This document shows, piece by piece, positions 17,712 to 44,672 of a stretch of 64,000 nucleotides of DNA. The stretch is taken from the NCBI GenBank assembly GCA_051313645.2, contig JBNRSN020000003.1:557752001-557816000 (forward strand). Direction: 5' to 3'. The stretch is from Centroscyllium fabricii (lineage: Eukaryota). Within the stretch, counting starts at the first letter, position 1, and the number at the start of each line of letters is the position of its first letter. The position numbers were made by a program, and so were the translations under genes. The notes beneath the pieces were generated by a model. That model was not told the origin of the DNA. It ran no database searches and saw only the letters and a program-made list of their open reading frames with translations.

Positions 17712-17865
17712 ATTATAATTGGTACAGAACAATCTATTTCACTTTCACTCTAAAGTTGTAAAGTATACACAGAAGGGGTACGATAGCATAGCGGTTATGT
17801 TACTGCACTAATGACCCAAAAACACGAGTTCAAATCTCACCTGGGGAATTTAAATTCAGTTAATT

Positions 17866-19182
17866 CAGTGACCAGCGGGGTACCGCAAGGTTCGGTGCTG
17901 GGGCCCCATTGTTTACATTATATATTAATGATTTGGACGAAGGGATTAAATGTTGTATCTCCAAATTTGCAGATGACACTAAATTGGGAGGCAGTATGAG
18001 CTGCGAGGAGGATGCTAAGAGGCTACAGAGTGACTTGGACAGGTTAGGTGAATGGGCAAATATATGGCAGATGAAGTACAATGTGGATAAATGTGAGGTT
18101 ATCCACTTTGGTGGTAAAAATAGAAAGACAGACTATTATCTGAATGGTGACGGATTAGGGAAAGGGGAGTTGCAACGAGACCTGGGCGTCATGGTACATC
18201 AGTCACTGAAGGTGGAAATGCAGGTACAGCAGGCAGTTAAGAAAGCAAATGGCATGTTGGCCTTCATAGCGAGGGGATTTGAGTACAGGAGTAGGCAGGT
18301 GTTCCTGGGACTAGGGACAGGGTCACTGGCAAGGCTTGGAAGCTAAGCAGGGCCAGGCCTGGTTAGTACTTGGATGGGTGACCACCAGGGAATACCAGGT
18401 GTAGAAGGTCACGAAAGGAGCCCCGGGGAGGGGCGGTTGGCTGAAGATTGTCGGAATGATGGAAAGATGGAATGGCGGCGCGCACAGACGCAGCGGCTTT
18501 GCTGGACTCTTGGGAGCTTGCAAGACCACATTTCGTTGTTCATGTACATTGTATAATGACAATAAAGTTGAATTATTATTATTATTGTGTTGCTACAGTT
18601 GTACAGAGCCTTGGTGAGACCACACTTGGAGTATTGTGTGCAGTTTTGGTCTCCTAAGTTGAGGAAGGACATTCTTGCTATTGAGGGAGTGCAGCGAAGG
18701 TTTACTAGATTGATTCCCGGGATGGCCGGACTGACATATCAAGAAAGACTGGATCAACTGAACATGTACTCTCTGGAGTTCAGAAGAATGAGGGGGGATC
18801 TCATAGAAACGTTTAAAATACTGACGGGTTTAGACAGGTTAGATGCGGACAGAATGTTCCCAATGTTGGGGAAGTCCAGAACCAGGGGGCACAGATTAAG
18901 GATAAGGGGTAAGCCATTTAGGACCGAAATGAGGAGAAACTTCTTCACCCAGAGAGTGGTGAACCTGTGGAATTCTCTACCATAGAAAGTTGTTGAGGCC
19001 AGTTCACTAAATATATTCAAAAGGGAGTTAGATGTAATACTTACAACTAGGGTGATCAAGGGGTATGGCGAGAAAGCAGGAATGGGGTACTGATGTAGCA
19101 TGTTTAGCCATGAACGTGTTGAATGGCGGTGCAGGCTCGAAGGGCCGAATGGTCTACTCCTGCACCTATTTTCTATGTTTCT
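17866..19182 (+). mobile_element. CR1 LINE, 5'-truncated, interrupted by a 5S-derived SINE
   Basis: ORFs 17909-18303 and 18587-18985 (SGVPQGSVLGP, KFADDTK, RPHLEYCVQFW); TTTCTATG tail. Confidence 0.92.
18304..18586 (+). mobile_element. 5S rRNA-derived SINE (SINE3-like) with (ATT)n tail
   Basis: GAAGCTAAGCAGGGCCAGGCCTGGTTAGTACTTGGATGGG...GGGAATACCAGGTG matches the 5S internal control region; TSD GTGTT (18299-18303 and 18587-18591). Confidence 0.85.
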
Positions 19183-21127
19183 AATTAAATAAATCTGGAG
19201 TAAAAAGCTAGTATCATAATGGTGACCATGAAACTACCGGATTATTGTAAAAACCCATCTGGTTCACTAATAACGAAGGAAATAAATACTTAGTGAAGGA
19301 AATCTGACGTCCTTACCTCGTCTGGCCCATATATGACTCCAGACCCAGTGTAGAGGACTCTTAACTGCGCTCTGAAATGGCCTACCAAACCACTCAGTTG
19401 TACCAAACCGCTACAAAGAAGCATCATGGACTGCAGCGGATCAAGACGATGGTTCACCACTACCCTCTCAAGGGCACTATTGGGATGGTAAGTATAGATG
19501 AAAGAAGTGTGAATTGGCATCATCTGCAAATGCTGGCCTTGCCAGCGATGCCCACATCCCATGAACGAATAAATAAAACCGGAGGTTTGGGAAAAAAAGA
19601 AAAAACTTCCATTTCTGCAGCGTCTTTCACAACGTCAGGACGCCTCAAAATGCTTTACAGCTAATGAAGTACTTTTGAAGTGAAGTCGCTGTTGTAATGT
19701 AGGAAACGCGACAAGATTGAAAGGCTACCTGCAACTCTAGTACATAAGATGCAGAAGTGGACAATTTTTTAAGAAGTTCTGCAAAACAAGCTTTTAAATA
19801 CCATAAATGTCCAAAGAAAATAAAGTGCACTGCAGTTCTGCAAGTTACTATAAAAAGGTGTCAATTAAATATAGTCCTTGTGACTAAAAAGTGGCCACTG
19901 CACTGGAGTATTCGTCTCTCCGAGGGCTACTATACTTAGGTTGCACTGTGCTGCAGGCGGTTATTAGAACTGTAAACTATAATTATTTCATATTCACTCA
20001 AGGTCGGTATTTATTTCCCATCCCCAATTGCCCTGAGAAGGTGGTGGTGGGCCTTTTTCTTGGACCACTGCAGTCAGTGTGGTGAAGGTACTCCCACAGT
20101 GCTGTGAGGTCATACAGTCAGAGTCATAATGGCACAGGAGGCCGCCATTCGGCCCATCGAGTCCGTGCCGTTCTCTGTAGAGCAATCCAATCAGTCCCAT
20201 TCCCCTGCTCTATCCCCGTAGCCCTGCAAGTTTATTTCCCTCAAGTGCCTATCCAGTCTCCCCTTGAAAACATTGAGTGTCTCCGCTTCCACCAGTACCG
20301 CCGGCAGCGAATTCCAAGTCCTTACCACTCACTGCGTAAAAACGTTTTTCCTCACATCCCTCCTATATCTCTTGCCCAAAACCTTAAATCTGTGTCCCCT
20401 AGTCCTTGTACCATCAACTAGTGGGAACAGCCTTTCCCCGTCGAGCCTATTCAAACCCGTCATAATCTTGTACACCTCTATCAAATCACCCCTCAACCTC
20501 CTTTGCTCTAATGAAAATAATTCCACCTTCTCTAACCTGTCCTTGTAGAGAAGATACCCCATCCCCGGAACCATTCTGGTAAATCTCCTCTGCACCCTCT
20601 CAAGGGCCTTCACATCCTTCCTAAAGTGTGGTGACCAGAACTGGACGCAATACTCTAGTTGCGGCCTAACCAGCGCTTTATAAAGGTTCAGCATAATTTC
20701 TCTACTTTTGTACTCAATACCTCTATTTATGAAGCCCAAGATCCCATATTCTTTGCTAACCACTCTCTCAATATGTCCTGCCACCTTCAGGGACCGATGC
20801 ACATTAACTCCCAGGTCCCTCTGTCCCTGCACACTCTTTAAAACTGTGCCATTAAGTGTATATTGCCTCTCCCTGTTCCTTCTGCCAAAATGCATCATCT
20901 CACACTTGTCTGTATTAAATTCCATCTGCCACTTGTCTGCCCATTCTGCGAGCCTTTCTATGTCCTGATGTAGTCGATTGAGATCAACCTTACTGTTTGC
21001 CACACACCCAAGTTTGGTGCCATCGGCAAATTTAGAAATTCTACTCTGTACTCCAATAAGCATATCATATATATAAAAAGCAGTGACCCCAGCACTGACC
21101 CTTGGGGAACACCACTGTCTACCATCC

Positions 21128-24100
21128 GATAGCAAAATACTGCAGATGCTGGAAATCTGAAATAACAGAAAACGCTGGAGAAACTCAGCAGGCCAGGCAG
21201 CATCGGTGGAGAGAGGAGCAGAGTTGACGTTTCAGGTCGATGACCTTTTTTCAAAACTAGAGAGGCCAGGAGGGGGGTTAGATTTTAAAGCTTGTGGGGG
21301 CTGGGGAAAGGGCGGGGGGGGGGGGGGTGGGCTAGAAGGCGGGGAGATAAGAGATATGCAGAGAAATTGAAGCAACACAGGATGGCTCAGAATAGGTGTG
21401 AACAGCTTTAGCATAGTAAAGAACAAAGCCCAGATGAAAGTGTGGATTGAAAAAAGAGAGAAAATATATATCTGTAAAAAAGTGTAGTGGGGGCCGAGGT
21501 TATAATCTAACATTGTTGAACTCTATTCAATCCACACTTTCGTCTGGGCTTTTTTCTTTACTATGCTAAAGCTGTTCACACCTATTCTGAGCCATCCTGT
21601 GTTTCTTCAATTTCTCAATTCAATTTAATTCAATTCAAGTTTTATTGTCATTGCAGAGTACTAGTGCAATACAACGAGACGAAGACTCGACTCTCCCGAG
21701 AGTAGTGCAAATAAAATAAATAAATTACATGCAGATTGCATACAGTAAAGTACATTATCAGGCGTGCAGGTACCAGAGTTTATTTTTAGAGTTCAGGAGG
21801 CTGACAGCCCTGGGGAAGAAGCTGTTCTGAAATCTAGTCGTGCGGGTGCAAATTGCTCTGTAGCGTCTCCCGGAGGGCAGGGGGGCGAACAGACTGTGGC
21901 TGGGGTGTGTGGGGTCTTTAATAATGTTCATAGACCTCCGTAAGCAGCGTTTGAGGTAGATGCTTTCCATTGACGGTAGCTGTGTACCGGTAATTCGTTG
22001 GGCAGTTTTGACTACCCGCTGCAGGGTTTTCAGGTCCGAGATAGTGCAATTTCCATACCAGATAGTGATGCAGCTTGTCAGTATGCTTTCTATTGTGCAG
22101 CGGTAGAAGTTGGAGAGGATGCCGGATGACAGCCTGGCTTTCTTCAGCTTCCTTAGGAAGTACAGGCGCTGTTGGGCCTTCTTAACCAGAGAGGAGGTGT
22201 TTAGTGACCAGGAGAGATCTTCCGAGATGTGGACCCCGAGGAACTTGAAGCTGGACACCCTTTCCACCTCAGCCCCTTGGATGAAGATGGGGGTGTGTCT
22301 TCTGCTTCCAGTCCTCCGGAAGTCCACTATGATCTCCTTGGTTTTCTTGGTGTTCAGTGCCAGGTTGTTGTCGGCACACCAACCCACAAGGCGCTGGATC
22401 TCATCCCTGTAGGCTGACTCGTCGTTGTTGGTGATCTGGCCAACCACCGTGGTGTCATCCGCGAACTTGATGATCGTGTTGGAGCCATGGACAGCCGCAC
22501 AGTCGTGAGTGAAGAGGGAGTAGAGGAGGGGGCTGAGCACACAACCTTGTGGGGCCCCCGTGTTCAGGGTAAGGGTGGGGGGGGGAGGTGAGGTTGCCTA
22601 ACTTCACAGACTGTGGTCTGTTGGTTAGGAAGTCCAGGGTCCAGTTGCAGAGGGAGGTGTTCAGGCCGAGGGTGAGGAGTTTGGTAGACAATTTGTTGGG
22701 GACGATGGTGTTGAATGCTGAGCTGTAGTCAATAAACAGCATTCTGATATATGTATCTTTGCTATCCAGGTGGTTTAGTGCAGAGTGAAGAGCCGTAGTG
22801 ATAGCATCCTCTGTAGATCTGTTCCCACGGTAGGCGAACTGGTATTGGTCCAGGGCGGCGGGGATGCTGGCTTTGATGTGGGCCAGGACCAGCCGCTCGA
22901 AACACTTCATGATAATGGGTGTAAGTGCAACAGGGCGGTCGTCGTTCAGGCACGTCACAGCCGTTTTCTTGGGCACAGGGATGATGGTGGCAGTTTTGAA
23001 GCAGGTAGGGACAGCTGCCTTCGCCAGTGACAGGTTGAAGATGTCAGTGAAGACTTCAGCCAGTTGGTCGGCACATTCTTTGAGTGCCCGGCCGGGGATG
23101 CCATCAGGACCCGCGGCCTTCCGTGCGTTCACTCTACGTAGAGCACCTCTAACATCGGAACAGGACAGTGTTAATGGCTGGTCTTCCGGGGATTGCAGGA
23201 CTTTGGTGGCTGGCTCCTTGTTGTCCCTGTCGAAGCGAACGTAGAAGTTGTTGAGTTCCTTCGGTAGGGAGGCATCGCCGGTCGGGGGGCTGGTGTTTCT
23301 GCACTTGTAGTCCGTGATGGACTGTATGCCTTGCCACATACGTCGAGGGTCCGAGTTGTTGTGAAAGTGTTCCTCTATCTTCAGTGTCTGGTTTTGTTTG
23401 GCATACCTGATACCCCTCTTTAGGTTGGCCCTGGCTGTGCTGTATGCCGCCACATCCCCAGATTTGAATGCTGTGTCACGCGCCTTCAGCAGCGAGCGGA
23501 CCTCCCCGTTCATCCAGGGTTTCTGGTTGGGGAATGACTTGATGTTTTTTTGGGTAGTGACCACCTCGACACAGCTGTTGATGTAAAAAAGCACTGTGGA
23601 TGCGTATTCCTCGATGTCCGTGTGAGCGAACATGCTCCATTCAGTGCGTTCGAAGCAGTCTTGTAGCTCTGAGACTGCCCCTTCTGGCCATACCCTGACT
23701 GTTTTGGTTGATGCTTTCACCCTTTTGATGAGTGGTTTGTATGCTGGGGCGAGGAACAGTGAAAGGTGGTCGGAATTCCCGAGGTGGGGGCACGGGATGG
23801 CTTTGTAAGCCTCTGTGATGTTGGTGTAGACCTGGTCCAGCGTGTTCTCGCCCCTCGTGGGGCAGGAGACATTCTTGTGAAATTTTGGTAGCACCGATTT
23901 GAGGTTAGCGTGGTTGAAGTCCCCCGCCACGATAAAGGCTCCCTCCGGATGCGCGGTCTGCTGCTCGCTGATGGCCCTGTGGAGATCTTTGAGTGCCAGT
24001 TTGGCATTTGCGTGTGGAGGGATGTAGACCGCAGTGAAGATGACGGCCGTAAATTCCCGAGGCAGGTAGAAGGGTCTGCACTTTACAGTGAGGAATTACA

Positions 24101-24522: not shown

Positions 24523-26121
24523 ACTGTCTACCATCCTCCAGTCTGAAAAACAGCCATTTACCACAACTCGCTGATTTCTGTCCTTAAACCAATTCTTTAT
24601 CGAAGCTGCCACTGACCCACCCATTCCACAAGCCTTAATTTTGTTAACCAGCTTTCCATGTGATACTTTGTCAAACGCATTCCTAAAATCCATGTAGACA
24701 ACATCCATTGCATTCTCTTCATCAATCCTCCCTGTTACTTCATCAATAAATTCAATTAGATTAGTCAAACACAATCTGCCTTTTACAAACCCATGTTGGC
24801 TCTCCTTAATTAGCTTAAACCTCTCCAAGTGCCCGTTAATTTTTTCCTTGATTATTGTTTCTAAAACTTTACCCACCACTGATGTTAACTGACCGGCCTG
24901 GAGTTACTAGGATTATCCTTAAACCCTTTCTTGAACAATGGTGTCATATTTGCCACTTTCCAATCCTCAGGCACCTCTAGGGAAGATTGGAAAATTATGG
25001 TAAGCCCTTCCGCTGTCTCCTCCCCCAATCCCATAGCAACCTGGGATGCAAGCCATCTGGACCAGGTGACTTACCCAGTCTTTCTAGTACATCCTGTCCA
25101 TCAATTTTCACCCCTTCAATTGCTTCTACCTTTTCCACTGCTATCGATATTTTGTCAGCATCGACCGATACAAAGTACTCATTGAGTATTCTAGCCTTGC
25201 CCTGTGCCTCTAAGCATAGATCACCTTCTTTGTCTCTAATAGGCCCCTCCCCACCTCTTACTACTCAGTTACTGTTTACATGCCGGTGGAAGATTTTTGG
25301 GTTCCCTTTTATGTTAACCACCATTCTACTCTCATATTCTCTCTTTGCCAATCTTATTTTCATCTTCACATCCCCTCTCAACTTATCGTATTTGGTCTGG
25401 TTCTCCCTTGAAGAATTCACCTGACGTGCATCATACTCCCTCTTTTTTTGTTTCATCATCTTCTCTATCTCCCTCATCATCCAAGGAGCCCTTGCTTTGG
25501 TTCCCTTACCCTTCCCTCTTGTTGGAATGTACCTCGCTTGTACTTGGAACATCTCCTCCTTAAAGATCTCCCATTGTTCCATTACAGCTTTCCCTGTCAG
25601 TCTTTGGTTCCATTTTACCTTGGCTAGATCCTTTCACATCACATTGAAGTTAGCCCTATTCCAGTTTAGAAGTTCCATTCTAGATTGTTCCTTGCACCTC
25701 TCCATTGCTAATCTAAATCTTATGATACGATGATCACTCGTACCCAAGTGTTCTCCCACAGACACTTGGTCGACCTGGCCCACCTCATTACCCAGCACCA
25801 ATGCCTCCTTCCTAGTTGGGCCAAGAACATACTGGTCAAGGAAATTCTCCCGAGCACATTTCAGAAATTCCTCCTCCGGCTTTCCCTTTACCCTAGCATT
25901 ATCCCAATCGATATTTGGGTAATTAAAGTCCCCTAATATCACCACTCTATAGCTCTTGCATATCTCTGTGATTCCCCTGCAGATTTGTTCCTCTACCTCC
26001 CTCTCACTATTTGGAGGCCTGTAGAATACCCCAATAGTGTGATCAGACCCTTTTTGCTCCTCAACTCTAACCAAATGGATTCTGTCCTTGTTCCCTCAAG
26101 AACATTCTCCCTTTCTAACAC

Positions 26122-28594
26122 AATTCAATTCAATTCAAGTTTTATTGTCATTGCAGAGTACTAGTACAATACAACGAGACGAAGACTCGACTCTCCCGAG
26201 AGTAGTGCAAACAAAATAAATAAATTACATGAAAATTGCATACAGTAAAGTTCATTATCAGGCGTGCAGGTACCGGAGTTTCTTTTTAGAGTTCAGGAGG
26301 CTGACAGCCCTGGGGAAGAAGCTGTTCTGAAATCTAGTCGTGCGGGTGCAAATTGCTCTGTAGCGTCTCCCGGAGGGCAGAGGGGTGAACAGACTGTGGC
26401 TGGGGTGTGTGGGGTCTTTAATAATGTTCATAGACCTCCGTAAGCAGCGTTTGAGGTAGATGCTTTCCATTGACGGTAGCTGTGTACCGGTAATTCGTTG
26501 GGCAGTTTTGACTACCCGCTGCAGGGTTTTCCGGTCCGAGATAGTGCAATTACCATACCAGACAGTGATGCAGCTTGTCAGTATGCTTTCTATTGTGCAG
26601 CGGTAGAAGTTGGAGAGGATGCCGGATGACAGCCTGGCTTTCTTCAGCTTCCTAAGGAAGTACAGGCGCTGTTGGGCCTTCTTAACCAGAGAGGAGGTGT
26701 TTAGTGACCAGGAGAGATCTTCCGAGATGTGGACCCCGAGGAACTTGAAGCTGGACACCCTTTCCACCTCAGCCCCTTGGATGAAGATGGGGGTGTGTCT
26801 TCTGCTTCCAGTCCTCCGGAAGTCCACTATGATCTCCTTGGTTTTCTTGGTGTTCAGTGCCAGGTTGTTGTCGGCACACCAACCCACAAGGCGCTGGATC
26901 TCATCCCTGTAGGCTGACTCGTCGTTGTTGGTGATCTGGCCAACCACCGTGGTGTCATCCGCGAACTTGATAATCGTGTTGGAGCCATGGACAGCCGCAC
27001 AGTCGTGAGTGAAGAGGGAGTAGAGGAGGGGGCTGAGCACACAACCTTGTGGGGCCCCCGTGTTCAGGGTAAGGGGGGGGGAAGGTGAGGTTGCCTAACT
27101 TCACAGACTGTGGTCTGTTGGTTAGGAAGTCCAGGGTCCAGTTGCAGAGGGAGGTGTTCAGGCCGAGGGTGAGGAGTTTGGTAGACAATTTGCTGGGGAC
27201 GATGGTGTTGAATGCTGAGCTGTAGTCAATAAACAGCATTCTGATATATGTTTCTTTGCTATCCAGGTGGTTTAGTGCAGAGTGAAGAGCCGTAGTGATA
27301 GCATCCTCTGTAGATCTGTTCCCACGGTAGGCAAACTGGTATTGGTCCAGGGTGGCGGGGATGCTGGCTTTGATGTGGGCCAGGACCAGCCGCTCGAAAC
27401 ACTTCATGATAATGGGTGTAAGTGCAACAGGGCAGTAGTCATTCAGGCACGTCACGGCCGTTTTCTTGGGCACAGGGATGATGGTGGCGGTTTTGAAGCA
27501 GGTAGGGATAGCTGCCTTCGCCAGTGACAGGTTGAAGATGTCAGTGAAGACTTCAGCCAGTTGGTCGGCACATTCTTTGAGTGCCCGGTCGGGGATGCCA
27601 TCAGGACCCGCGGCCTTCCGTGCGTTCACTCTACGTAGAGCACCTCTAACGTCGGAACAGGACAGTGTTAATGGCTGGTCTTCTGGTGATTGCAGGACTT
27701 TGGTGGCTGGCTCCTTGTTGTCCCTGTCGAAGCGAGCGTAGAAGTTGTTGAGTTCCTCCGGTAGGGAGGCATCGCCGGTCGGGGGGCTGGTGTTTCTGCA
27801 CTTGTAGTCCGTGATGGACTGTATGCCTTGCCACATACGTCGAGGGTCCGAGTTGTTGAGAAAGTGTTCCTCTATCTTCAGTGTCTGGTTTTGTTTGGCA
27901 TACCTGATACCCCTCTTTAGGTTGGCCCTGGCTGTGCTGTAAGCCGCCACATCCCCAGATTTGAAAGCTGTGTCACGCGCCTTCAGCAGCGAGCGGACCT
28001 CACCGTTCATCCAGGGTTTCTGGTTGGGGAATGTCTTGATGTTTTTTTGGGTAGTGACCACCTCGACACAGCTGTTGATGTAAAAAAGCACTGTGGATGC
28101 GTATTCCTCGATGTCCGTGTGAGCGAACATGCTCCATTCAGTGCGTTTGAAGCAGTCTTGTAGCTCCGAGACTGCCCCTTCTGGCCATACCCTGACTGTT
28201 TTGGTTGAAGCTTTCACCCTTTTGATGAGTGGTTTGTATGCTGGGGCGAGGAACAGTGAAAGGTGGTCGGAATTCCCGAGGTGGGGGCACGGGATGGCTT
28301 TGTAAGCCTCTGCAATGTTGGTGTAGACCTGGTCCAGCGTGTTCTCGCCCCTCGTGGGGCAGGAGACATTCTTGTAAAATTTTGGTAGCACCGATTTGAG
28401 GTTAGCGTGGTTGAAGTCCCCCGCCACGATAAAGGCTCCCTCCGGATGCGCGGTCTGCTGCTCACTGATGGCCCTGTGGAGATCTTTGAGTGCCAGTTTG
28501 GCATTTGCGTGTGGAGGGATGTAGACCGCAGTGAAGATGACGGCCGTAAATTCCCGAGGCAGGTAGAAGGGTCTGCACTTTACAGTGAGGAATT
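26122..28594 (-). mobile_element. Rex1/Babar-clade LINE, copy 2
   Basis: Near-identical to copy 1, with a different 5' truncation point and different flanks. Confidence 0.92.
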
Positions 28595-28919: not shown

Positions 28920-31900
28920 TGTGGTAAACCACTGTGTTGTATATATATGTATTACATCTATAACCTGCTATGACCCTTTCTGTATGTATATAGTTCTCCC
29001 TGTACAGCTTGTCTGGGCATGCCCGTGCTGACTCCGCCTGTGGCTCCTCCTCCCTGGACCAGGTATAAAGGTGACTGTCTCCCTCCCCCCGATCATTCCG
29101 GGAGCAGTTGACTAGCTGGGGTATGCCCATGTCTTAGCGAATAAAAGCCTTTTATTCACCACGTAACTTCTCGTCTCCGAGGTTATTGATAAGGTATCAA
29201 TTTTATTCGCTAAATTTCATCATGGAGCTAATGCTAAAACCAGCGACGTTAGAACTGGATCCCCAAACACCAGGCTCATCTAATACGTTTACGCACTGGT
29301 TTAACTGCTTCGAGGCGTACCTCGAAGCCACCGCGTCTATCGTCCAGACGGACAGAGACAAGCTGCGCCTTCTCAACGCCCAGGTGGGCCCCCAGGTATA
29401 CTCAATAATCGCGGACGCCACGTCCTATACCGAGGTGGTCCGAATCCTGAAGGCCGAATACACCCGGGCACCGAACATCGTTTACGCCAGACACCTCCTG
29501 GCCACCAGAAAGCAGCAACCCGGGGAATCGGGCGTGGAATTCCTACGAGCGCGGAGAGTCCTCTGCCGGGCCTGCAACTGTAAGTCACAGACGGCCTTGG
29601 TGCACTCCGAAAGCCTCATCAGGGACGCTTATGTCACCGGCCTCAGGTCAGACTACATCAGGCAGAGACTGTTGGAGCAGAATGGCCTGGACCTGCAGGC
29701 GACAATTGAAATGGCAAATTCGCTGGACTTAGCGTCCCATAATATGGCCGCTTACTCCTCTGACCACGCGGGCACATCGCGGACGCCGCCATCTTGGACG
29801 CAGCCGGCCGCATTGCGACCAGCGGAGGAGATGACTGCAGCAACAACCCCCAAAGGCCCAAAGTGCTATTTCTGCGGTCAGGCTCAGCACCCCAGGCGAA
29901 ATTGCCCGGCAAGAGACGCGGCCTCCTCCAAGTGCGGAAAGAAGGGCCACTATGCGAAGGTATGCAGGGCGGCGGCACAATCGGCTTCCAAACCTGGCAG
30001 CGCCGCGTGTGGCCTGTGGGGGCAGCCATCTTGGGCACAGCCATCTTCAACACAGGCCGCCGCGTGGGAGCAGACGCCATCTTGGACACAGCCATCTTCC
30101 ACACAGCCTGCCGCGTGGCGGCAGCCATCGTGGGACCAGGCCCCAGACCTCTCAACCGACCCGATACTGGCCTCCATCACCCTCGACCAGAACAGGAGCC
30201 AGCCCCTCAGCAGATCGATGATGACGGTGCAGGTGAACGGGAAAAGCACGGACTGCCTTTTCGACAGTGGGAGTACGGCGAGCTTCATTCACCCAGATAC
30301 GGTAAAGCGCTTCTCCCTAACAGTCACTCCGGCTAGCCAAAAAATTTCGATGGCTTCTAAGTCCGAATCTGCGGTCGCTGCGTAGTGACCCTGACAGTGC
30401 GGGGAGCGCACTTTCAAAATTTTAAATTATTCGTGCTGCCGCAGCTCTGCTCTCCCTTACTGCTGGGCCTCGATTTTCAGTGTCACCTCCAGAGCGTGAC
30501 AATGGCGTACGGTGGGCCCCTTCCCCCGCTCACGGTCAGCAACCAGCGCTTCCCGCAGCACCCACAGCGCGCTACCTGTGGCCTCTCGACCCTTAAGGTC
30601 GCCCCTCCCTCACTCTTCGCCAACCTCACCCCGGACTGCAAGCCCGTCGCCACCAAAAGTAGGCGCTACAGTACTGGGGACAGGGACTTCATTAAGTCTG
30701 AGGTGAAACGGCTCCTGAAGGAAGGGGTCATCGAGGCCAGTAATAGCCCCTGGAGGGCGCAGGTAGTAGTGGTAAAGACCGGAGCCAAGCACCGAATGGT
30801 CGTTGACTACAGTCAGACCATTAATCGGTTTACGCAGCTAGATGCGTATCCCCTCCCCCGCATAGCGGATATGGTGAACCAGATCGCTCAGTATCGGGTC
30901 TTCTCGACCATCGATCTAAAGTCTGCGTACCGCCAGCTTCCCATCCCCCCAGAGGACCGCCACTACACTGCTTTCGAGGCAGACGGCCGCCTCTATCACT
31001 TCCTCAGGGTTCCGTTTGGTGTCACCAACGGGGTCTCGGTCTTCCAAAGGGAGATGGACCAAATGGTTGATCAGTACGGACTGCGGGCCACCTTTCCATA
31101 TCTTGATAATGTTACCATCTGCGGCCACGATCAGCAGGACCATGACACTAACCTCCAGAAATTTCTCCACACCGCCAAAAATTTGAACCTGACCTATAAC
31201 ATGGAAAAATGTGTGTTCAGGACAACCCGCCTCGCCATCCTCGGCAGTGTTGTGGAGAATGGGGTCATCGGTCCCGACCCAGACCGCATGCGCCCCCTCC
31301 TGGAGCTCCCCTTCCCCCACTCCCTCAAGGCCCTGAAAAGGTGCCTGGGGTTCTTTTCTTATTATGCCCAGTGGGTCCCCAACTATGCGGACAAGGCCCG
31401 CCCACTTATTAAATCAACCTCCTTTCCCCTGTCGGCAGAGGCCCGCACGGCCTTCTGCGGCATAAAACAAGACATTGCAAAGGCCGCGATGCACGCTGTG
31501 GACGAGTCCGCCCCGTTCCAGGTAGAGAGCGATGCGTCCGACTTTGCCCTGGCCGCCACCCTTAACCAGGCGGGCAGACCCGTGGCCTTCTTCTCGCGCA
31601 CCCTCCAGGGCCCCGAGACCCGACACTCTTCCATTGAGAAGGAGGCCCAGGCCACTGTTGAAGCAGTGCGACACTGGAAGCACTACCTGGCCGGCAAACG
31701 ATTTACCCTGCTGACTGACCAACGCTCAGTCGCTTTCATGTTCAACAACAAAGAGCGGGGTAAAATCAAGAACGACAAGATATTAAGGTGGAGAATTGAG
31801 CTCTCTGCTTTCAATTACGATATCTTGTACCGGCCCGGGAAATTCAATGAGCCCCCAGATGCCCTGTCCCGCGGTACATGTGCCAGCGCACAAGTGGACC

Positions 31901-33407
31901 GTCTCCAGACCCTGCACAACGACCTCTGCCACCCGGGGGTCACCAGGTTTGTCCCATTTATCAAGTCCCGCAACCTCCCTTACTCCATTGAGGAGGTCAA
32001 GACCATGACCAAGAACTGCCGGGTCTGTGCAGAGTGCAAGCCGCACTTCTTTCGGCCGGACCGGGCGCACCTGATCAAGGCCACCCGCCCTTTTGAGCGA
32101 CTCAGCGTCGACTTCAAAGGGCCCCTCCCCTCCTCCAACCGCAACGTTTACTTTCTGAACGTCATTGTCGAGTACTCGCGGTTCCCCTTTGCCATCCCCT
32201 GCCCGGACATGACCTCCTCCACGGTCATTAGGGCGCTGCACAGCATCTTCTCCCTGTTCGGGTATCCCAGCTACATCAATAGTGACCGGGGGGCCTCTTT
32301 CATGAGTGACGAGCTGCGTCAGTTCCTGCTCGCCAAGGGCATCGCCACGAGCAGGACTACCAGCTATAACCCCCGGGGGAACGGGCAGGTAGAGAGGGAG
32401 AACGCCATCGTCTGGAAGGCCATCCTATTAGCCCTGCGGTCTAAGGGCCTCCCAGTCTCCCGCTGGAAGGACGTCCTCCCCGAAGCGCTCCATTCCATTC
32501 GGTCACTCCTATGTACGGCCACTAACGCCACCCCTCACGAGCGACTTTTTGCCTTCCCTAGGAAGTCGGCTTCAGGGACCTCGCTGCCGTCTTGGCTATC
32601 GTCCCCAGGACCCGTCCTGCTCCGGAAGCACGTGAGGGGCCATAAGTCGGACCCCCTGGTCGAACGGGTCCACTTCCTGCACGCCAACCCCCAGTACGCC
32701 TACGTGGCGTACCCTGACGGGAGGGAGGATACGGTGTCCATCAAGGACCTGGCACCCTCGGACGCTCCCGAGATCAGTAGGACCCACCAGCCCGCACCCC
32801 CCCCCCGCCCACCGCCACCTTCGGGGCACCAACATCACGGTACGTCATACCCCTCGAGGCACCAGCACCACGGTACGCCCACCCAGCACCTGCAGGCAGC
32901 ACAGTATGGCCCCCTAACCTACGCACCCGCCAGCCGGATGACGAATGGGGGAGCGCGCCTGTGACAGTTACTGCAAGGGGCCCCGCATCGGAGCAAGCAC
33001 CATCGCCGACACCCCCACCGCCGACTGTGCGCCGCTCGACAAGGCAGACCAGGCCACCCGACAGACTGAACATTTAATGGTTGCACAGCATTTACCCCGC
33101 CGGACTTTATTTTAAACAAGGGGTGAATGTGGTAAACCACTGTGTTGTATATATATGTATCACATCTATAACCTGCTATGACCCTCTCTGTGTGTATATA
33201 GTTCTCCCTGTACAGCTTGTCTGGGCATGCCCGTGCTGACTCCGCCTGTGGCTCCTCCCCCCTGGACCAAGTATAAAGGTGACTGTCTCCCTCCCCCCGA
33301 TCATTCCGGGAGCAGTCGACTAGCTGGGGCATGCCCATGTCTTAGCGAATAAAAGCCTTTTATTCACCACGTAACTTCTCGTCTCCGAGGTTATTGATAA
33401 GGTATCA
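28920..33407 (+). mobile_element. Full-length Gypsy LTR retrotransposon (4488 bp)
   Basis: 280-bp LTRs at 28920-29199 and 33128-33407, TG...CA ends, TSD TTCCT, purine tract AAGGGGTGAA before the 3' LTR; 7 LTR differences counted by eye. Confidence 0.96.
29222..32964 (+). pseudogene. Gypsy gag-pol, frameshifted near 30380
   Basis: Gag with CCHC knuckles, protease LFDSGS, then a frame change to pol (RT RVPFGV..YLDN, RNase H SDAS, integrase HHCC/DDE). Confidence 0.88.
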
Positions 33408-33489
33408 TTCCTCTTTTGTACTCCTATACGCTGGTGCCCATCCCCCTGCCACGCTAATTTAAACCCTCCCCAACAAGCACTAGCACATT

Positions 33490-34680
33490 AAAAAAAATTT
33501 TTTTTAATGGGATGTGAGCGTCGCTGGCAAGGCCAGCATTTATTGCCTATCCCTAATTGCCCTCGAGAAGATGGTGGTGAGCCACCTTCAACCGCTGCCG
33601 TCCGTGTGGTGAAGGCACTCCCACAATTCTGTTAAGGAGGAGGTTCCAGGATTTTGACCCAGCGATGATGAAAGATCGGCGATATATTTCCAAGTCAGGA
33701 TGGTGTGTGACTTGGAGGTGGTGGTGTTCCCATGCGCCTGCTGCCCTTGTCCTTCTAGGTGGAAGAGGTGCTGCCGAAGAAGTCTTGGACGAGTTGCTGC
33801 GGCGCATATCGTAGATGGTTCGCACTGCAGCCACGGTACGCCGGTGGTGGTGGGAGTGAGTGTTTACAGTGGTGGATGAGGTGCCAATTAAACAGTTTGC
33901 TTTGTCGTGTATGGTGTCGAGCTTCTTGAGTGTTGTTGGAGCTGCACTCATTCAGGCAAGTGAAGAGTATTCCGTCACAGTGATGATGAAGGAACGGCGA
34001 TAGAAGTCCAAGTTAGGATGGTGTGAAGAATTGAAGGGGAACTAAGAGGTGATGATGTTCCCAGGCACCTACTGCCTTTGTCCTTCTAGGTGGTGGAGGT
34101 CACGGGTTTGGGAGGTGCTGCTGAAGAAGCCTTGGTGAGTTGCTGCAGTGAATCTTGTAGATAGTAGGCACTAGAGTCATGGTATGCCTGTGGTGGGGAG
34201 GTGAATTTTTAGGCTAATATATGTAGTATTGATCAAGCGGACTGCTTTGTCCTGGATGGTGTTGAGCTTTTTCAGTGTTGTTTCAGGTTCACCCAACCAA
34301 GCAAGTGGAGAGTATGCCATCCTTCCATCACTTCGCTGATGACTGAGTGTGGGGTGACAGGGTGGTATGTGGCTAGGTTGGATTTGTCCTGCTTTCTGTG
34401 GACTGGACACACCTGGGCAATTTTTCATGTTGTCAGGTAGATGCCAGTGCTGTGGGTGTACTGGAAATGCTTGGCTAGGTATGCGGCTAGTTCAGGAACA
34501 CAGGTCTTCAGCACTACTGCCGGGATATTGTTGAAGCCCCTAGCCTTTATTGTGTCCAGTGCACTCAATCATTTTTTGATGTCACGTGAAGGGAAACAAA
34601 TTGGCATTTGTCCTGTTGGAGACCCCAAAAGGAGGCAGAGAAGGATAATTCACTCAGCATTTCTGGCTGAAGATGGCATA
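33490..34680 (-). mobile_element. Non-LTR retrotransposon fragments (same family as 16190-16803)
   Basis: MSAAPTTLKKLDTI and YSPLAW translations, appearing twice. Confidence 0.65.
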
Positions 34681-34699
34681 TGTCTTCACAAAAACAGAT

Positions 34700-36320
34700 A
34701 CTGCCAATGTCACAGTAAAGGAGGAGGGGGTAGATCAATTGGATAGGATAAATAGATAAAGAGGAGGTACTTAAAAGATTGGTAGTGTTTAAAGCAGAAA
34801 AGTCTTCCATCCTAGGTGGCTGAGGGACGTATGGGTGGAAATAACAGAGGCTCTGGCCGCAATCTTTCAATTCTCTTTGTATATGGGAGTGGTGCCAGAG
34901 GACTGGAGGGTTGCAAATGTTATACCCCTGTTCAAAAAGGGAGAGGGATAAACCCAGTAACTACAAGCCTGTCAGCCAAACGTCAGTGGTGGGGGAAGCT
35001 TCTAGAGACAATAATCCTGGACAAAATTAACTGACACTTGGAAAAACATGGGTTAATTGACAGCCAACACAGACTTGTTAAAGGCAAGTCGTGTCTGAGA
35101 AACTTAATTGAGTTCTTCGATTAAATAACGGAGAGGGTCGATGAAGGTAATGTAGTTGATGTTGTGTATATGGACCTTCAAAAGGTGTTTGATAAAGTGC
35201 CAAATAATGGCCCAGAAATTCGGGTCGGAGGCTTCCCGCGAGTGTAAGCCTCCAACCTGCACTTACCCAGCGCTCCGGCCGTTGAGCTGTGGGCCTGCGT
35301 GGAATTCCGATGCGGGGCCCTCCTGAACTGCCGGAGCGCCGCGCTCCCGGATCCCAGCAGCGAAGATAGTGCAAAGGATCGCGCGGGATCACGTGGGCCA
35401 CGGAGAGCCAATTGGAGCACAGAATGCTCCATTCATAAGTTTGACAGGAAGACCTGTCAAACGTATGAAAACTACAAGCCCCAAAACATCACTAAATCTT
35501 CAAATACATTTTTTTTAAATCACATTTTTAAAAATAATTATCAATGACATTAAATAAACTATTTTAAACAATAATGTAAATTTTTGAAAAAATTAATTAG
35601 TTTTGAACGGGGCTAAAAATAAACTTACCTTTCTTTAAAGTATTTAAAAAGAAAAAACCTGTGGAAAAAATGTTTTAAATTGAATTAATTCACCACTTAC
35701 CTTCTGAAAACCAGTCTTTACACATGAAAATATCAGACGTATCTTTTTCCTTACTTACCCGCACACAGACCTGCAAAAAAAAAAAATCAGAAGTGCGTTG
35801 CGCACGCATTCCGACCCCTGACCCCTTCTGTCGGGTGATCGGAAGTGCCGGTTTCGCGCGCATGCACTGTGCATGCACGAAACTGACACTTCGGATGGGC
35901 CTATGGGTGAGTACCCCGCGTGTACTCATGCGTTGGGACTGGAATTTCTGGGCCATTGGACTTGTTAGCAAAATTGAAGCCTATTAGATGAAAGGGACAA
36001 TGGCGACATGGATATGAAATTGGCTGAGGGACAGAAAGCAGAGAGTAATGGTGAATGACTAGACTGGAGGGAAGCATGTAGTGGGATCGCCCAGTGGGCA
36101 GTATTAGAATCACTGCTCTTTTTGATATAATGAGCTGGACTTGGGGATAGGAGGCACAATTTCAAAGTTTGTAGGTGGCACAAAACTTGTAAATGTAGTA
36201 AACAGTGAGGAGGATAGTAGCAGTCTTCAGGAGGACATAGACTGGTGAAATGGGCAGATGATATTTAATGCAGAGAAGTGTGAAGTGATGCATTTTGGGA
36301 AGAAGAATTTTAAAGAGGAT
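34700..36320 (+). mobile_element. Degraded CR1 RT fragment interrupted by a MITE
   Basis: Frameshifted WRVANV, YMD.QK.FDKVP and KCEVMHFG motifs. Confidence 0.7.
35209..35954. mobile_element. MITE with perfect 13-bp TIR GGCCCAGAAATTC (Harbinger-like)
   Basis: TIRs read directly; interrupts CR1 coding sequence; paralog of 16989-17711. Confidence 0.85.
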
Positions 36321-36479
36321 GCAGGAACAAAGAGATCTGGAATTTCTCCCAAGCACTGCCACTATCAAAGGACTTTTGACAAGAGACCAAAGAGCAGATA
36401 CCCACCCAATGCTCTGAGGCACCGGGAAAAACAAGGAAAAAATTCCAAACGATATGTTTAGGCTGTGCCAAATGTTATA

Positions 36480-37375
36480 CAGGTTGTGCACCGTTAATCC
36501 GTTACCCGATAAGCCGGCAGCTTCAGTCTTCCGGAACAAATTGCCCCGACTGCCCTGCGCATGCGCAAAATGGCCGCCATGATTGATGCTTCAGTGAATG
36601 ATCTGCACATGCGCCGCCGAACGGCGAGCGCATGCGCAGATCATTCACAATGGCCGCCGAAGTTTTTAATGATCTGCACATGCACTGCCGAACGATCCCG
36701 GGCCGGGCCTTCCCGAGCCTTGCCTTACCGAGCCGGGGCTTCCAGAGCCGGGCCTCGCCAAGCCTTCCCGAGCCAGGCCGGGGCTTCCCGAGCCGGGGCT
36801 TCCCGAGCCGGGGCTTCCCGAGCCGGGCCTCACCAAGCCTTCCCGAGCCAGGCCGGGGCTTCCCGAGCCGGGCCTCGCTGGGGCTCCCCAAGCCGGGCCT
36901 TACCGAACGATAAGCGCATGCGCAGATTGTGACCGAAATAACGACCTCGTGGACGAGTAGTTAGAAGGGTGAAACAATGCGGCTTTTATTCACTAAATGG
37001 TGGACATGCACCAGGTAGTCGACCGTCTCCAGGAATGGCCGGGGGATGGGAGACGGCCTCTTATATACCTCCTCCTGGGAGGGAGGAGTCGCGGGCGGAG
37101 CCAGCCTGGGCATGTCCAGGTAATCTTACAACAGGTTATACAGGTTATGGATATAAGCATGATTACAGAGATACATCATAGGGTGGGTATATACAATGGA
37201 AACAGTGGGAAACAGTGGTTTATCACACAGACCACTCAAAATGGCCGCCGGCCTTTCGTGCTGGCCATTTTGAATGGTCTGCGCATGCGCTCGCCGAAGC
37301 TTCAATGGTTGGGGATTTTCACTTTCCCGGCACGGGCCTGGTCTCGCCCGTGCCGGATTAACGGTGCTCAGCCTG
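36480..37375. mobile_element. Tc1/mariner(pogo)-like MITE
   Basis: TA TSD; 22-bp TIR CAGGTTGTGCACCGTTAATCCG (20/22 match); internal GCCGGGGCTTCCCGA tandem repeat at 36700-36900. Confidence 0.85.
36928..37227 (-). mobile_element. Solo LTR related to the 28920 Gypsy LTR
   Basis: Minus strand starts TGTGATAAACCACTG and shares GACATGCCC and TAGTGAATAAAAGCC motifs; TSD CAGAT/CAGAC. Confidence 0.8.
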
Positions 37376-37585
37376 TAGTTCATTACAATCACAACACAAT
37401 CTGTTTTTCAGAAAGCCAGTGCTCAATGCTGGACGCCACTGATACTCAGCCTAAAACTTACAAGCATTCCAATCAGCAAATTTCTTGAACAATCAATTAA
37501 AGTGACCAAGACAAGCTTGTATTTATTTAACAATTAGACTTTGTAGCCCTGAAGGAATACAGTTCTAAATCAGTAGCAGACTATT

Positions 37586-40491
37586 GGGCCATAATTTGCG
37601 GTAGGAGTGACTCTTGCGGCATCTGCCGTTAGTTAGACTTGCCTGATTAATCTTGATGATATTTTGCGCCACAAGTTGCTGTAAGCGTGGGCTGAAAAAC
37701 TCGCAGCGAGGGAAACCAGGCATCTGGAATCGAGTGAAAGGGCAAGCGACTGCGTATCTCCTTAACCAATCAGATTGAAGGATTGTGAAATAAACATCCC
37801 AGGGACTGACAAGGAAGTGTAACATCGAGTGAGTGAATTCAATATCAAATCAAGTACAGAAAGAGAAATAGAGCGGGAGAGAAAGATTAGATTGAGGGAG
37901 AGAGAGAGAGAGAGAGAAAAGTAAAAAAAAGTTTTTAATTTAAAAATTTCACATTTTTAAAATATCCAACAACAATTAAAACCTGAAGGAATGAAGCTCC
38001 ACATTTGTAATAATTTATTTTCGGTGACAGAGAGGCTAATTGGCAGTAATTAACACTTACCACATTATTAAAAGAATCTCTGACAGCTAATCGAGGCTTA
38101 ATTAAATACGTGCAGATCCTAAATGGCTTCAAAACAGGTTCTTTATGACACATCAGACCAGTTCAAACATTCTGTGGCGAGTTTAGTTCGTATCTAACAC
38201 GCAAATACAGCAACTTCACACCACTTAATGCACTTCAACACTGAGCCAGGCAGCGAGATACCATTGTCACAAAGCTAACGGCGAGTGGCGCACCTTATCA
38301 TAGAATCATAGAAGATAGGAGCAGGAGTAGGCCATTCAGCCCTTCGAGCCTGCTCCGCCATTCAATGAGATCATGGCTGATCTTTAGCAAGCTAGTACCC
38401 TGTCCCCGCCTTTTCTCCGTAACCTTTAATCTCTTTAGCTTGAAGAAATATATCCAATTCCCTCTTGAATATGTTTAATGAACTGGCCTCCACCGCCCTC
38501 TGTGGCAAGGAATTCCACAGGCCCACCACTCTCTGAGTGAAGAAATTCTTCCTCATGTCTGTCCTAAATGGTTTACCCCTTATTCTTAGACTGTGGCCCC
38601 TGGTTCTGGACTCCCCCGCCATTGGAAACATTCTCTCTGAATCTAACCTGTCCAGACCTTTCAGAATTTTATACGTCTCAATGAGATCGCCTCTCAATCT
38701 TCTAAACTCCAACGAGTACAAGCCCAGACTACATAGTCTCTCCTCGTAGGTCATTCCTGCCATTCCAGGAATCAGCCTGGTGAAACGCCGCTGCACTCCT
38801 TCCATGGCAAGAACATCCTTCCTCAGGCGAGGCGACCAGAACTGTACACAATACTCGAGGTGTGGTCTCACCAGTGCCTTGTACAGCTGTAGCAAGGTAT
38901 CCTTATTCCTATACTCGAACCCTCTTGATATGAAGGCCAACACACTATTTGCCTTCCTAACCGCCTGCTGCACCTGCGTGCTCGCCTTCAGCGACTGGTG
39001 CACAAGAACACCCAGGTCTCTTTGCACCTCCCCATCTCTTGCCATTTAAGTAATAATCTACCCTCCTGTTTTTGCCCCCAAAGTGGATAACCTCACATTT
39101 ATCCACATTATAGTGCATCTGCCATCTATCTGCCCAGTCCCCCAACTTATCCAAATCGCCCTGTAACTTCCTGACACCCTCTTCAGAGCCTGCCCCCCCT
39201 CCTAGTTTGGTGTCATCTGCGAATTTGGAGATATTACATTCAATTCCCTGATCCAGATCATTAATATATATTGTAAACAGCTGGGGTCCCAGGCCAGACC
39301 CCTGCGGTACCCCACTAGTCACCGGCTGCCACTCAGAAAACGAGCCGTTAATTACAACTCTCTGTTTTCTATCTGCCAACCAGTTCTCTATCCACATCAA
39401 AACTTTGCCCCCAATCCCATGAGCCTTAATTTTACATGCTAATCTTTTATGTGGAACCTTATCGAAGGCTTTCTGGAAGTCAAGGTACACCACATCTACT
39501 GGCTCTCCCCCATCTATTTTCCGAGTTACTTCCTCAAAGAATTCCAATAGATTAGTTAAACACGATTTACCTTTTGTAAATCCATGTTGACTCTGTCCGA
39601 TCTCATCCCTAATTGTCAAATGCTCCGAGATTACATCCTTGATAATGGACTCGAGCATTTTGCCCACTACTGATGTAAGGCTTACTGGTCTATAATTCCC
39701 TGCTTTCTCTCTGCCCCACTTTTTAAATAGTGGGGTAACATTAGCCACCCTCCAATCCGTGGGTACTGATCCAGAGTCTATCGAGTTCTGGAAAATGATC
39801 CTTAAAGCACCCGCTATTTCCAGGGCCACCTCTTTAAGTACCCTAGGATGTAGATTATCAGGCCCTGGGGATTTGTCGGCCTTCAATCCCTTCAACTTCC
39901 CCAAAACCATCTCCTTAGAAATACTGATATCTGTCAGCTCCTCCCTTGCATTAGACCCTATGTTCGCTGCTATCCCTGGGAGGTTGCTTGTGTCCTCCTT
40001 TGTGAAGACAGAACCAAAATATGAATTTAGTTGGTCTGCCATTTCTTTATTCCCCATTATATATTCCCCTGCAAGGGACCGACTTGGGATTTTACCAATC
40101 TTTTCCTCTTGATGTACCTATAAAAGCTTTTGCAGTCAGTTTTTATGTTTGCCGCAAGCTTACATTCGTAATCTATCTTCCCCCTCCTGATTAATCCCTT
40201 TGTCTTCCTTTGCTGTATCCTGAACTGCTCCCAATCTTCCGGCCTGGTAGTTTTTTTGGCCAATTGATATGCCCATTTTTTGGATTTAATGTTGTCCCTT
40301 ATTTCCCTTGTTATCCACGGTTGAGTCACCTTTCACAAAGCTAACGGCGAGTGGCGCACCTTGGACAGCAACTTTTGAATTTCCGCATTTAACTGCGCAG
40401 GTGCCCTTGCCTGAAGTTGCTGTAGCATTTGTGCATAAATAAAGGCGAGTATTATTAACCTTGCCATTCTTTTGACAGCAAATTATGGGCC
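37586..40491. mobile_element. Harbinger-like MITE (TIR GG(G/C)CCATAATTTGC) split by a CR1
   Basis: TIR-like ends at 37586 and 40478-40491. Confidence 0.6.
38297..40332 (-). mobile_element. Young CR1 LINE, 5'-truncated, with small internal deletions
   Basis: RT ORFs 38392-39045, 38957-40057 and 40057-40329; 30-bp flanking duplication. Confidence 0.93.
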
Positions 40492-40802
40492 AACACATTG
40501 TGTATTACATGGCATAACACTGCTGTCCTTGTATCATCCAACTTACTTTGAGCTACACCACGAGAGATCTACTCGTCCACATGGACTGCAGCGGTTCAAG
40601 AAGGTGGCTCACCACCACCTTCTCAAGAGCAAGAAGGGATGGGCAATAAATGCTGACCTTGTCAGCGATGCCCAGATCCCATGAATGAATAAAAAAGACA
40701 GGTAAAGTAACACAACATACCATATTTTAAAATGTTCTTTGGGTTATATGGTAATAGCACATGAAGCTGAAAGGATGACTGATATAAGGATGTTGGGCTG
40801 AC

Positions 40803-40976
40803 CTTCTGGGCTGCAGGTGGGTCTCAAATCCATTCCTTGATGCACTGCAGTTACTTTCTAAGGGTTGTCCTGTGAAGATGGAATAGTCAGAACCTGGAGT
40901 CAGCCACTTCCGTCTTGTAACGTCATCAGTTGGAGTTTTTGTAGGAGAATGATATGCATCAGGATGATGGAAAAGG
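40803..40976 (-). CDS. MPHOSPH9: MPHOSPH9 exon (...DVTRRKWLTPGSDYSIFTGQPLE...)
   Basis: 174 nt, phase 2-2, gtcagc donor; matches DVSRRKWLIPGAEYSIFTGQPLD. Confidence 0.92.
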
Positions 40977-41639
40977 CTGTTTTTGATAACACAAGAGAAT
41001 GTTTATCCATATTTTCAGTTCAGACTGGTCTGCTTTAAGCTCTCTAAATGTGGCATAAACAAAAGTTATTCTTCCTGTAACAAGAACATAAGAAATAGGA
41101 GCAGGAGTCGGCCACTTAGCCCCTCGAGCCTGCTCCACCATTCAATGAGATCATGGCTGATCTTCTACCTCATCTCCCCTTTCCTGCACTATCCCCATAT
41201 CCCTGGATTCCCTTAGTATCCAAAACTCTCATCAATCTCTGTCTTGTATATGTCTCTGCATAATAAAGGTTATGCTTAAATATTTTATATCACTTGCATA
41301 CAAAATATTCTCCACTAAACAGGATATTACAATACTTCACTTTCCCTCTTAAATATAAGGCTCCCGCTGGGAGGTGCTTTGGAATGCCAGACTAACTCAT
41401 TTACCACTATACACATTTTAAAGTAAAACTTAAATTACAGAGATTGTTTCTTGGAATGCTGACAGAACACTTTGAAATAATTGTAGATTTTGTCCTTAAC
41501 ACAAGCAAACCGAGTAAAGTCAACTCTTCTTTATCCTTACACACAGAAAGCGAGGAGCATGAAGTTCATAAAAATAATGACAGTGGCATTTGCAGCAGCC
41601 ACACTGTTCATTTGGAGTAGTTGTGATTTTGTGAATGAT

Positions 41640-43065: not shown

Positions 43066-43780
43066 AAAATAGATAAGGCCATCTTAGACTGGGTATTATG
43101 TAATGAGAAAGGATTAATTAGCAATCTTGTTGTGCAGGGCCCCTTGGGTCGGAGCGATCATAATATGATGGAATTCTTCATTAAGATGGAGAGTGAAGTA
43201 GTTGACTCAGAGACTCGGGTCCTGAATTTAAATAAAGGAAACTACGATGGTATGAGACGCGAGTTGGGTAGGATTGATTGGGGAATGTTACTCAAAGGGT
43301 TGACGGTGGATAGGCAATGGCAAACATTCAAAGATCGCATGGATGAACTACAGAATTTGTTCATCCTTGTTTAGCATAAAAATAAAACAAAAAAGGTGAC
43401 TCAACCGTGGCTAACAAGGAAAATTAGGGATAGCATAAGATCCAAGGACAGGACATATAAATTGGCCAGAAAAAGCAGTAAACCTGAGGATTGGGAGCAG
43501 TTTAGGATTCAGCAAAGGAGGACAAAAGGATTAATTAAGAGGGGCAAAATAAAGTACGAGAATAAGCTTTCAGGGAACATAAAAACTGACTGTAAAAGCT
43601 TTTATAGATACGTGAAGAGAAAAAGATTGGTTAAGTCAAGCGTAGGTCCCTTGCAGTCAGAATCAGGGGAATTTATAATGGGGAACAAAGACATTGCAGA
43701 CCAATTAAATACATACTTTGGCTCGGTCTTCACAAAGGAGGACACAAATAACCTCCCAGAGATGTCGGGAAACATGAGTG
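43066..43780 (+). mobile_element. Second CR1 fragment (endonuclease-to-RT linker) joined to the previous copy
   Basis: ILDWVLCNE..LGRSDHN, QPWLTRKIRDSI. Confidence 0.8.
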
Positions 43781-43830
43781 GATGTGATACATTGTTTTAA
43801 GTTTGATTTAGAAAATAAATTTGCATTTAC

Positions 43831-43935: not shown

Positions 43936-43976
43936 CTGAAATGCAAGAATAAGCAATTTCATGACTGTTAAGACAT

Positions 43977-44646: not shown

Positions 44647-44672
44647 AATGACTACTTAAAATTTAGGTTATA

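Follow-up and report, generated by a model that had tools for sequence, protein, structure and literature searches.

A young, abundant 5S-headed SINE of Centroscyllium fabricii with sequences matching both ends of Rex1 LINEs

In the genome of Centroscyllium fabricii a fragment of a LINE reverse transcriptase (RT) is interrupted by a short insert, and the locus raises the question of what this insert is composed of and which enzymes may have placed it there. The locus lies in a stretch of 64,000 nucleotides (contig JBNRSN020000003.1, positions 557,752,001 to 557,816,000), hereafter called the window. The original prediction described a 283-bp insertion between GTGTT target site duplications (TSDs), with a promoter region derived from 5S rRNA and a tail resembling the Rex1/Babar LINEs of the window, and proposed a SINE3 family that is mobilised by such a LINE and possibly undescribed in sharks. 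The features of the locus are listed below; the CR1 clade of the host fragment is our assumption, and the boxes of the 5S part are named after the 5S promoter layout as we take it to be.

17864..19185, + strand: host LINE fragment, CR1-type (3′ half of the RT and tail)
18299..18303, + strand: left repeat of the 5-bp target duplication, ending in 4 nt that are identical to consensus nt 5-8 (microhomology at the 5′ junction)
18300..18334, + strand: non-5S leader without the first 4 consensus nt; it opens with a perfect 5′ hairpin, and the strand behind this is predicted to base-pair with the beginning of the 5S part
18335..18408, + strand: 5S rRNA nt 44-117 with A box, intermediate element and C box, without the 5S terminator
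18409..18471, + strand: 63-nt spacer containing a small GC hairpin and, at its end adjoining the Rex1 piece, an apparent ATGG duplication
18472..18501, + strand: first 30 nt of Rex1 LINEs, including the ATG that opens their single ORF
18502..18507, + strand: 6-nt linker joining the two Rex1 pieces
18508..18574, + strand: Rex1-C-type LINE 3′ end with a predicted stem (18533-18539 / 18553-18559)
18575..18586, + strand: (ATT)4 terminal repeat
18587..18591, + strand: right copy of the 5-bp target duplication

When searching the genome of C. fabricii itself by BLAST, all 40 scored matches (from 804 candidates) were full length and 96-100% identical, so that the insert belongs to a multi-copy family with a 5S head. 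Exact patterns matched 11,743 times for the head and 10,334 times for the junction, and the reversed patterns used as controls did not match at all; these more than 10,000 exact matches rule out the single-copy chimera that had been named as a possible refutation. Contig C1 has 58 junction and 100 head matches in its first 79 Mb, and 22 of these junction matches overlap a head match. The union of both patterns corresponds to at least ~18,000 copies, and capture-recapture, which assumes independence, gave an estimate of 31,000-47,000; a total of 30,000-47,000 is likely. The 3′ two thirds of the SINE were also found in contigs from two runs (358 and 377 pieces), which speaks for presence, not transcription; small shares of the SINE in other runs (X3-X9), and just 34 nt of the tail in a further one (X15), are no evidence for it.

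From 90 sampled loci 6 duplicates were removed (84), after which 7 loci without a head were dropped to give 77 copies, and 2 interrupted copies were dropped to give 75 for a consensus of ~294 nt. Copies differ from this consensus by 1-6%. Mean divergence was 1.3% for copies picked by BLAST, a biased sample, 2.3% for junction-picked and 3.1% for head-picked copies, and by site it was 6.7% at CpG and 1.8% elsewhere. Among 30 head-picked copies 28 share the body of the SINE, which distinguishes the family from a 5S pseudogene, and the remaining two are broken by other insertions; the leader is retained in 24 of 30 junction-picked copies, while the other six end at varied points. SINEBase asks for a short interspersed repeat with at least 100 copies (PMC3531059), and with ~294 nt, dispersed locations and the head count given above the element falls within this definition. 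It is a young and abundant SINE3 family. In one subfamily (7 of 75 aligned copies; L120, L125, L128, L131, L138, L140, L094, L100) 10 nt are deleted from the C-box region; if this subfamily is a source lineage, it was amplified with a shortened promoter. In two copies (L180, L195) a tail segment is inverted between the arms of a palindromic stem, and another copy lies directly behind the tail repeat of a Rex1-A element (L016:1784-1830).

The insert (~18300-18586) is indeed one SINE3-family copy inside the CR1-type RT fragment, whose frame it interrupts. The host frame gives ..RGFEYRSRQV up to the insert and continues with VLLQLYRAL.. behind it, and GTGTT occurs once more than in the empty site; the duplication is therefore real. 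The start that had been set at 18304 did not hold, however, in the comparison of 77 copies. Upstream of 18304 the copies have GCCCTGTT in common, which is whole in 31 of the 77, with random sequence beyond it, and whose last positions T, G, T and T are kept in 72, 72, 76 and 76 of the 77. The 5′ boundary of the family is thus 8 nt upstream of 18304, and the window copy begins at consensus nt 5. Therefore the TGTT of the left repeat is element sequence as well: the GTGTT is duplicated relative to the empty site, but four of its five bases also belong to the element's own 5′ sequence. TSDs of at least 5 nt were present in 13 of 77 copies compared to 5.9% of 2000 mismatched pairs, with some 3′ ends called imprecisely, and TSDs of at least 7 nt in 2 of 77, so long TSDs are absent family-wide. 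Look-alikes of the empty site were available for 31 of the 77 copies and revealed on visual inspection short duplications or small deletions with microhomology. In three loci (L015, L086, L078) the first 10-20 nt of the leader are duplicated directly upstream of the SINE, which suggests template jumps at the 5′ hairpin.

The Rfam 5S_rRNA model matched the insert with 31.4 bits (E 1.3e-4), below its gathering score of 38, and no match at the gathering score was obtained in the window. Compared to nt 44-117 of the host 5S, the window copy is identical at 66 of 74 positions and the consensus at 68 of 74, within the range of at least 60% identity over at least 60 nt by which SINE3s are recognised. 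The predicted region from A box to C box was thus confirmed, as was the non-5S character of the first ~33 nt, since 62% of 1000 shuffles scored as well against 5S nt 1-45. Such a leader is ordinary, because other SINE3s also have diverged upstream regions (Kojima 2024, PMC10886601). A search of the window and the sampled loci for the origin of leader and spacer yielded three short, chance-level matches among 106 for the leader and no non-SINE match among 105 for the spacer.

The head is predicted to fold strongly (-59.8 kcal/mol, z -5.0 in copy L123) into the 5′ hairpin, a stem between the leader and the first nucleotides of the 5S part, and an arm which we take to be helix IV/V of 5S. The differences of the consensus from 5S leave the pairing in this arm intact or improve it, and the GNRA loop persists in the common variants. 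A ribozyme in leader or spacer was considered and rejected: Rfam gave no match there, and by eye the stems do not fit the hammerhead and HDV layouts as we assume them. The distance from the 5′ end of the SINE to the A-box region is 42 nt, compared to 46 in 5S, and the body has no T4 run. Both the spacing and the lack of T4 are consistent with Pol III transcription from the 5S control region. Elsewhere in the genome, a dispersed full-length 5S copy is followed by a tRNA-like SINE head in place of the 5S spacer (L113:1500-1660).

To name the clade of the candidate partner LINEs, homologue names were of no help, as they pointed to no clade. Two 5′-truncated copies of one family, Rex1-A, lie in the window:

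21611..24097, - strand: 5′-truncated Rex1-A copy, the earlier comparison sequence, not the tail donor
26112..28594, - strand: second 5′-truncated Rex1-A copy, 98% identical to the first

The RT of the partner LINEs carries PF00078 and PF09004, and their 5′ end and N-terminus resemble labelled Rex1 consensuses. The 12-nt start of their 5′ motif had ten matches in the supplement of PMC13343379, where the first ~400 letters were compared, and all ten were 5′ ends of Rex1-labelled consensuses, three of them from skate. The published RTX1 primers lie ~550 bp apart in the Rex1 RT (PMC4635592). At the nucleotide level they match the partner LINEs poorly (11-14 of 21-24), but the peptides underneath are 572-576 bp apart in Rex1-A and Rex1-B and absent in three CR1 controls; of three decayed C/C2 copies, two have the second motif alone. 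The 3′ UTR of Rex1/Babar is reported to be followed by 5-7-nt tandem repeats (PMC4635592), and we found (GAATT)n in Rex1-A, C and C2 and a 3-nt repeat in Rex1-B. Judged by their 5′ ends and 3′ repeats, the partner LINEs are of Rex1 type. In all three families the ORF has a hydrophobic, signal-peptide-like stretch at residues 16-30 (13-residue hydropathy 2.1-3.3; first 35 codons; L064, L068, L146, L165, L287, L296, L297). This stretch, which goes unmentioned in the excerpt of PMC3708506, may bear on the frequent horizontal transfer of Rex1.

The SINE tail was expected to resemble the Rex1 copies of the window, and it does, with scores of 45-49 against shuffle maxima of 31-33. AATGACAATAAA is found exactly at the insert end and at both Rex1 ends in the window, and with at most one mismatch it has four matches in the window compared to 0.34 expected. 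However, the best match is another family, Rex1-C. The 73-nt consensus tail is identical to Rex1-C at 64-67 of 73 positions (5 copies), to C2 at 55-59/73, to the headless families described below at 48/61-57/73, to Rex1-A at 51-52/74 and to Rex1-B at 43-45/64-66. Three non-Rex LINE ends from the window, presumably two of CR1 type and one L2-like, scored at or below the shuffle means, so that none of these controls provides a better match. The assignment of the tail to a Rex1-clade LINE therefore stands. In Rex1-C copies a Rex RT lies upstream of the tail, and one copy, L298, has both the 5′ motif and the tail. A 6-nt stretch of the tail, which 50 of 75 aligned copies possess, is missing from the window copy. 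All 13 tails compared across families retain a 7-bp stem; its eight one-sided changes and one two-sided change are consistent with a stem, although the covariation is weak.

The terminal repeat of the SINE is (ATT)n as in Rex1-B, while Rex1-C has (GAATT)n. Rex1-B was considered as tail donor on account of this ATT tail and was displaced by the far better match to Rex1-C. In best-hit samples, divergence from the own majority was 3.5% in Rex1-C (n=30), 2.1% in Rex1-B (n=15) and 0.2% in Rex1-A (n=10), and the 2.3-3.1% of the SINE overlaps the first two ages. SINE copies at the young end of the range (0-2%) seem to be of more recent origin than the Rex1-C copies in the sample (1-6%).

The link to Rex1 through the tail, as first proposed, was incomplete: the Rex1 5′ terminus at 18472-18501 had been missed, and the 3′ half of the SINE carries both Rex1 ends. 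The 30-nt piece matches the 5′ ends of Rex1-A at 26-27 of 30 positions (4 of 10 loci are complete at the 5′ end), those of Rex1-B at 25-27/30 (15 of 15 loci) and those of Rex1-C/C2 at 24-27/30 (22 of 30 loci), whereas its best match elsewhere in the window is 18/30. The flanks of the LINEs diverge directly or shortly upstream of the motif, and several Rex1-B loci share a longer upstream stretch. Its ATG opens the single ORF of the partner LINEs, which runs into the endonuclease, in line with the reported absence of ORF1 in Rex1 (PMC13343379). On the basis of these alignments the SINE is bipartite, both its 5′ and its 3′ piece stemming from a single LINE clade, Rex1.

The closest matches to the 30-nt piece (29-30/30) are found in headless elements. 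A degenerate form of the 5′ motif had 7,064 exact matches genome-wide, and 28 of 30 sampled loci were non-coding elements ~450-1050 bp long, in which a GC-rich tandem middle is followed by a Rex1-type tail (e.g. L013:2060-2630, L031-L060); the other two were one autonomous Rex1-B and one truncated SINE. The headless elements, about 7,000 in the genome, form several families which all keep both Rex1 ends and differ in their middles. The exact 5′-linker-3′ junction of the SINE was present in none of the headless elements among these 30 loci. Likewise, no headless element with the junction occurred among 30 junction-picked and 18 further loci (13 headless by 5′ sequence, 4 deletion variants of the SINE, 1 truncated copy), apart from one truncated copy in both sets. 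This copy (L049/L085), a candidate for a headless precursor, turned out to be a truncated SINE fused to a Gypsy repeat via microhomology. Within the window itself there are also a Gypsy-type LTR element (28920-33410), whose LTRs are 97.5% identical and whose gag and pol frames are long, and a 3.4-kb tandem array of 53/29/82-bp units resembling a LINE 3′ end (57711-61105).

As the SINE joins part of the 5S promoter to the first and last bases of Rex1, it is likely copied by Rex1 enzymes. Our reading, to which we assign a probability of roughly 85%, is that of a young SINE with a 5S-derived head and two Rex1 LINE ends, likely transcribed by Pol III and likely inserted by the Rex1 RT via its tail. 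By analogy, transcription from the 5S control region would start at the first G of the leader and, given the lack of a T4 run in the body, may read through to the end of the SINE. The Rex1 protein would then bind the 3′ stem and prime at the target (target-primed reverse transcription), and the 5′ end would be joined to the target by microhomology. The enzyme at any given time may be from Rex1-C, -B or -A; since the (ATT)n end matches Rex1-B, it may have changed over time. Most likely the SINE arose by Kojima's route of internal deletion followed by head capture, in which a Rex1 derivative reduced to 30 nt of the 5′ end and 73 nt of the 3′ end would have gained the 5S head via template switch or recombination.

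With the 5′ piece closest to the headless elements and the tail closest to Rex1-C, no sampled single donor explains both, which makes a later swap of the tail a real alternative. The 5′ piece would then come from a headless family and the tail would have been replaced by that of Rex1-C, without there ever having been one bipartite precursor. The matches of 29-30/30 to headless elements compared to 24-27/30 to Rex1-C for the 5′ piece, and of 64-67/73 to Rex1-C compared to 48/61-57/73 to headless elements for the tail, fit such a history, and tail exchange is a known route (Kojima 2018, PMC5786205). We nevertheless hold it only tentatively, with the balance somewhat against it: the differences in the 5′ piece amount to just 1-3 nt, the Rex1-C copies are decayed, the headless sample comprises 30 of 7,064 loci, and the swap would alter the history, not the mechanism. 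The Rex1 5′ piece is probably a relic by now. That it is instead functional, needed in cis by the Rex1 protein or serving as a second (Pol II) promoter, appears doubtful to us, even though all headless families keep both ends despite differing middles, nucleotide sequence conservation of the motif extends from teleosts to skate, and its start resembles what we take to be a YY1 site. This YY1-like start is interrupted in the SINE, copy L124 lacks most of the piece, and its non-CpG divergence of 1.3% is similar to the 1.5-1.9% of the other modules. Moreover, only one of the 30 junction-picked copies begins at the motif, and there the SINE is joined through microhomology to a Gypsy repeat.

The first 40 nt are not 5S, and Pol III transcription of the SINE is predicted only, so one could also imagine a non-autonomous Rex1 derivative that is driven by Pol II and merely carries a captured 5S fragment. 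This is very improbable given a complete control region at nearly the same distance from the 5′ end as in 5S, a body without a T4 run, and the diverged upstream regions reported in other SINE3s (Kojima 2024, PMC10886601). The location inside a CR1 fragment, and nothing else, would favour a single-copy chimera, a 5S pseudogene or a SINE3 with a CR1/L2 tail; with more than 10,000 exact matches, a uniform body and non-Rex tail controls at chance, the odds of this are negligible.

A SINE of 5S head and Rex1 ends, as we propose, extends a known SINE design and is not a new mechanism. CoeSINE5, SINE-1_Pmo, HaSE3 and Ped-1 likewise have a 5S head, both ends of one LINE clade and a microsatellite end, but their donor is RTE, whereas here it is Rex1, the 5′ piece comprises the outermost terminus, start codon included, and a hairpin replaces the leader (PMC5786205, PMC3747384). 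Zebrafish SINE3, AmnSINE1 and OS-SINE1 share the 5S control region as promoter and a vertebrate host, but have tails of the CR1/L2 group and a Deu domain in contrast to the Rex1 tail (PMC3747384, PMC7245038). In our SINE the unexplained part amounts to just the 63-nt spacer. The shark and chimaera SINEs HE1, SacSINE1 and the CmiSINEs differ by their tRNA heads and CR1 or L2 tails (PMC3747384, PMC5499810). A Rex1 partner is listed for SINE2-5_NV of the sea anemone (Rex1-24_NV), the one such tRNA SINE in the excerpt of Ohshima 2013; it has a tRNA head and no reported 5′ Rex1 piece (PMC3747384). As a precedent it is uncertain, because its 3′ region is similar to HaSE1, an element with a 3′ half that stems from RTE (Kojima 2018, PMC5786205). 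The headless elements keep just both LINE ends, as do RIME, NARTc, Bov-A, RTESINE1/2 and the Vingi-1_EE derivatives, but Rex1 is outside the clades listed for these (PMC5786205), and the headless middles are GC-rich tandem repeats, not LINE sequence.

In the excerpt of Kojima 2018 (PMC5786205), RTE and Vingi are the sole donors of 5′ ends to SINEs, ORF-less bipartite LINEs derive from RTE, Ingi, Vingi and R2 only, and 'rex' is absent from the text; our motifs had no match in its supplement, where alignments in picture form would be missed. For SINE3 the partners CR1, I and RTE are given (Kojima 2020, PMC7245038), and the excerpts of the SINEBase paper (PMC3531059), the C. milii SINE paper (PMC5499810) and a Rex review (PMC6274825) contain no such case. 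The suggestion that the family is possibly undescribed thus holds for the open literature searched, in which we found no report of a Rex1-tailed SINE3 or a bipartite Rex1, and is limited to it; Repbase, Dfam, Repbase Reports, the SINEBase sequences and subscription journals were outside this search, so a catalogue entry may already exist.

We see even chances that Rex1 is a so far unreported bipartite donor, with thousands of ORF-less derivatives, one of which became a 5S-headed SINE, and that the 30-nt motif may be a cis signal. As the SINE keeps the extreme 5′ terminus inside its putative Pol III transcript, the motif may be a signal needed by the Rex1 protein. Whether the restriction of donors reflects sampling bias or is tied to 5′ ribozymes and transcription was left open by Kojima 2018 (PMC5786205), and autonomous LINEs, headless derivatives and a headed SINE in one genome bear on this question. 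In addition, the SINE offers a minimal 100-nt Rex1 substrate for studying what this often horizontally transferred clade recognises.
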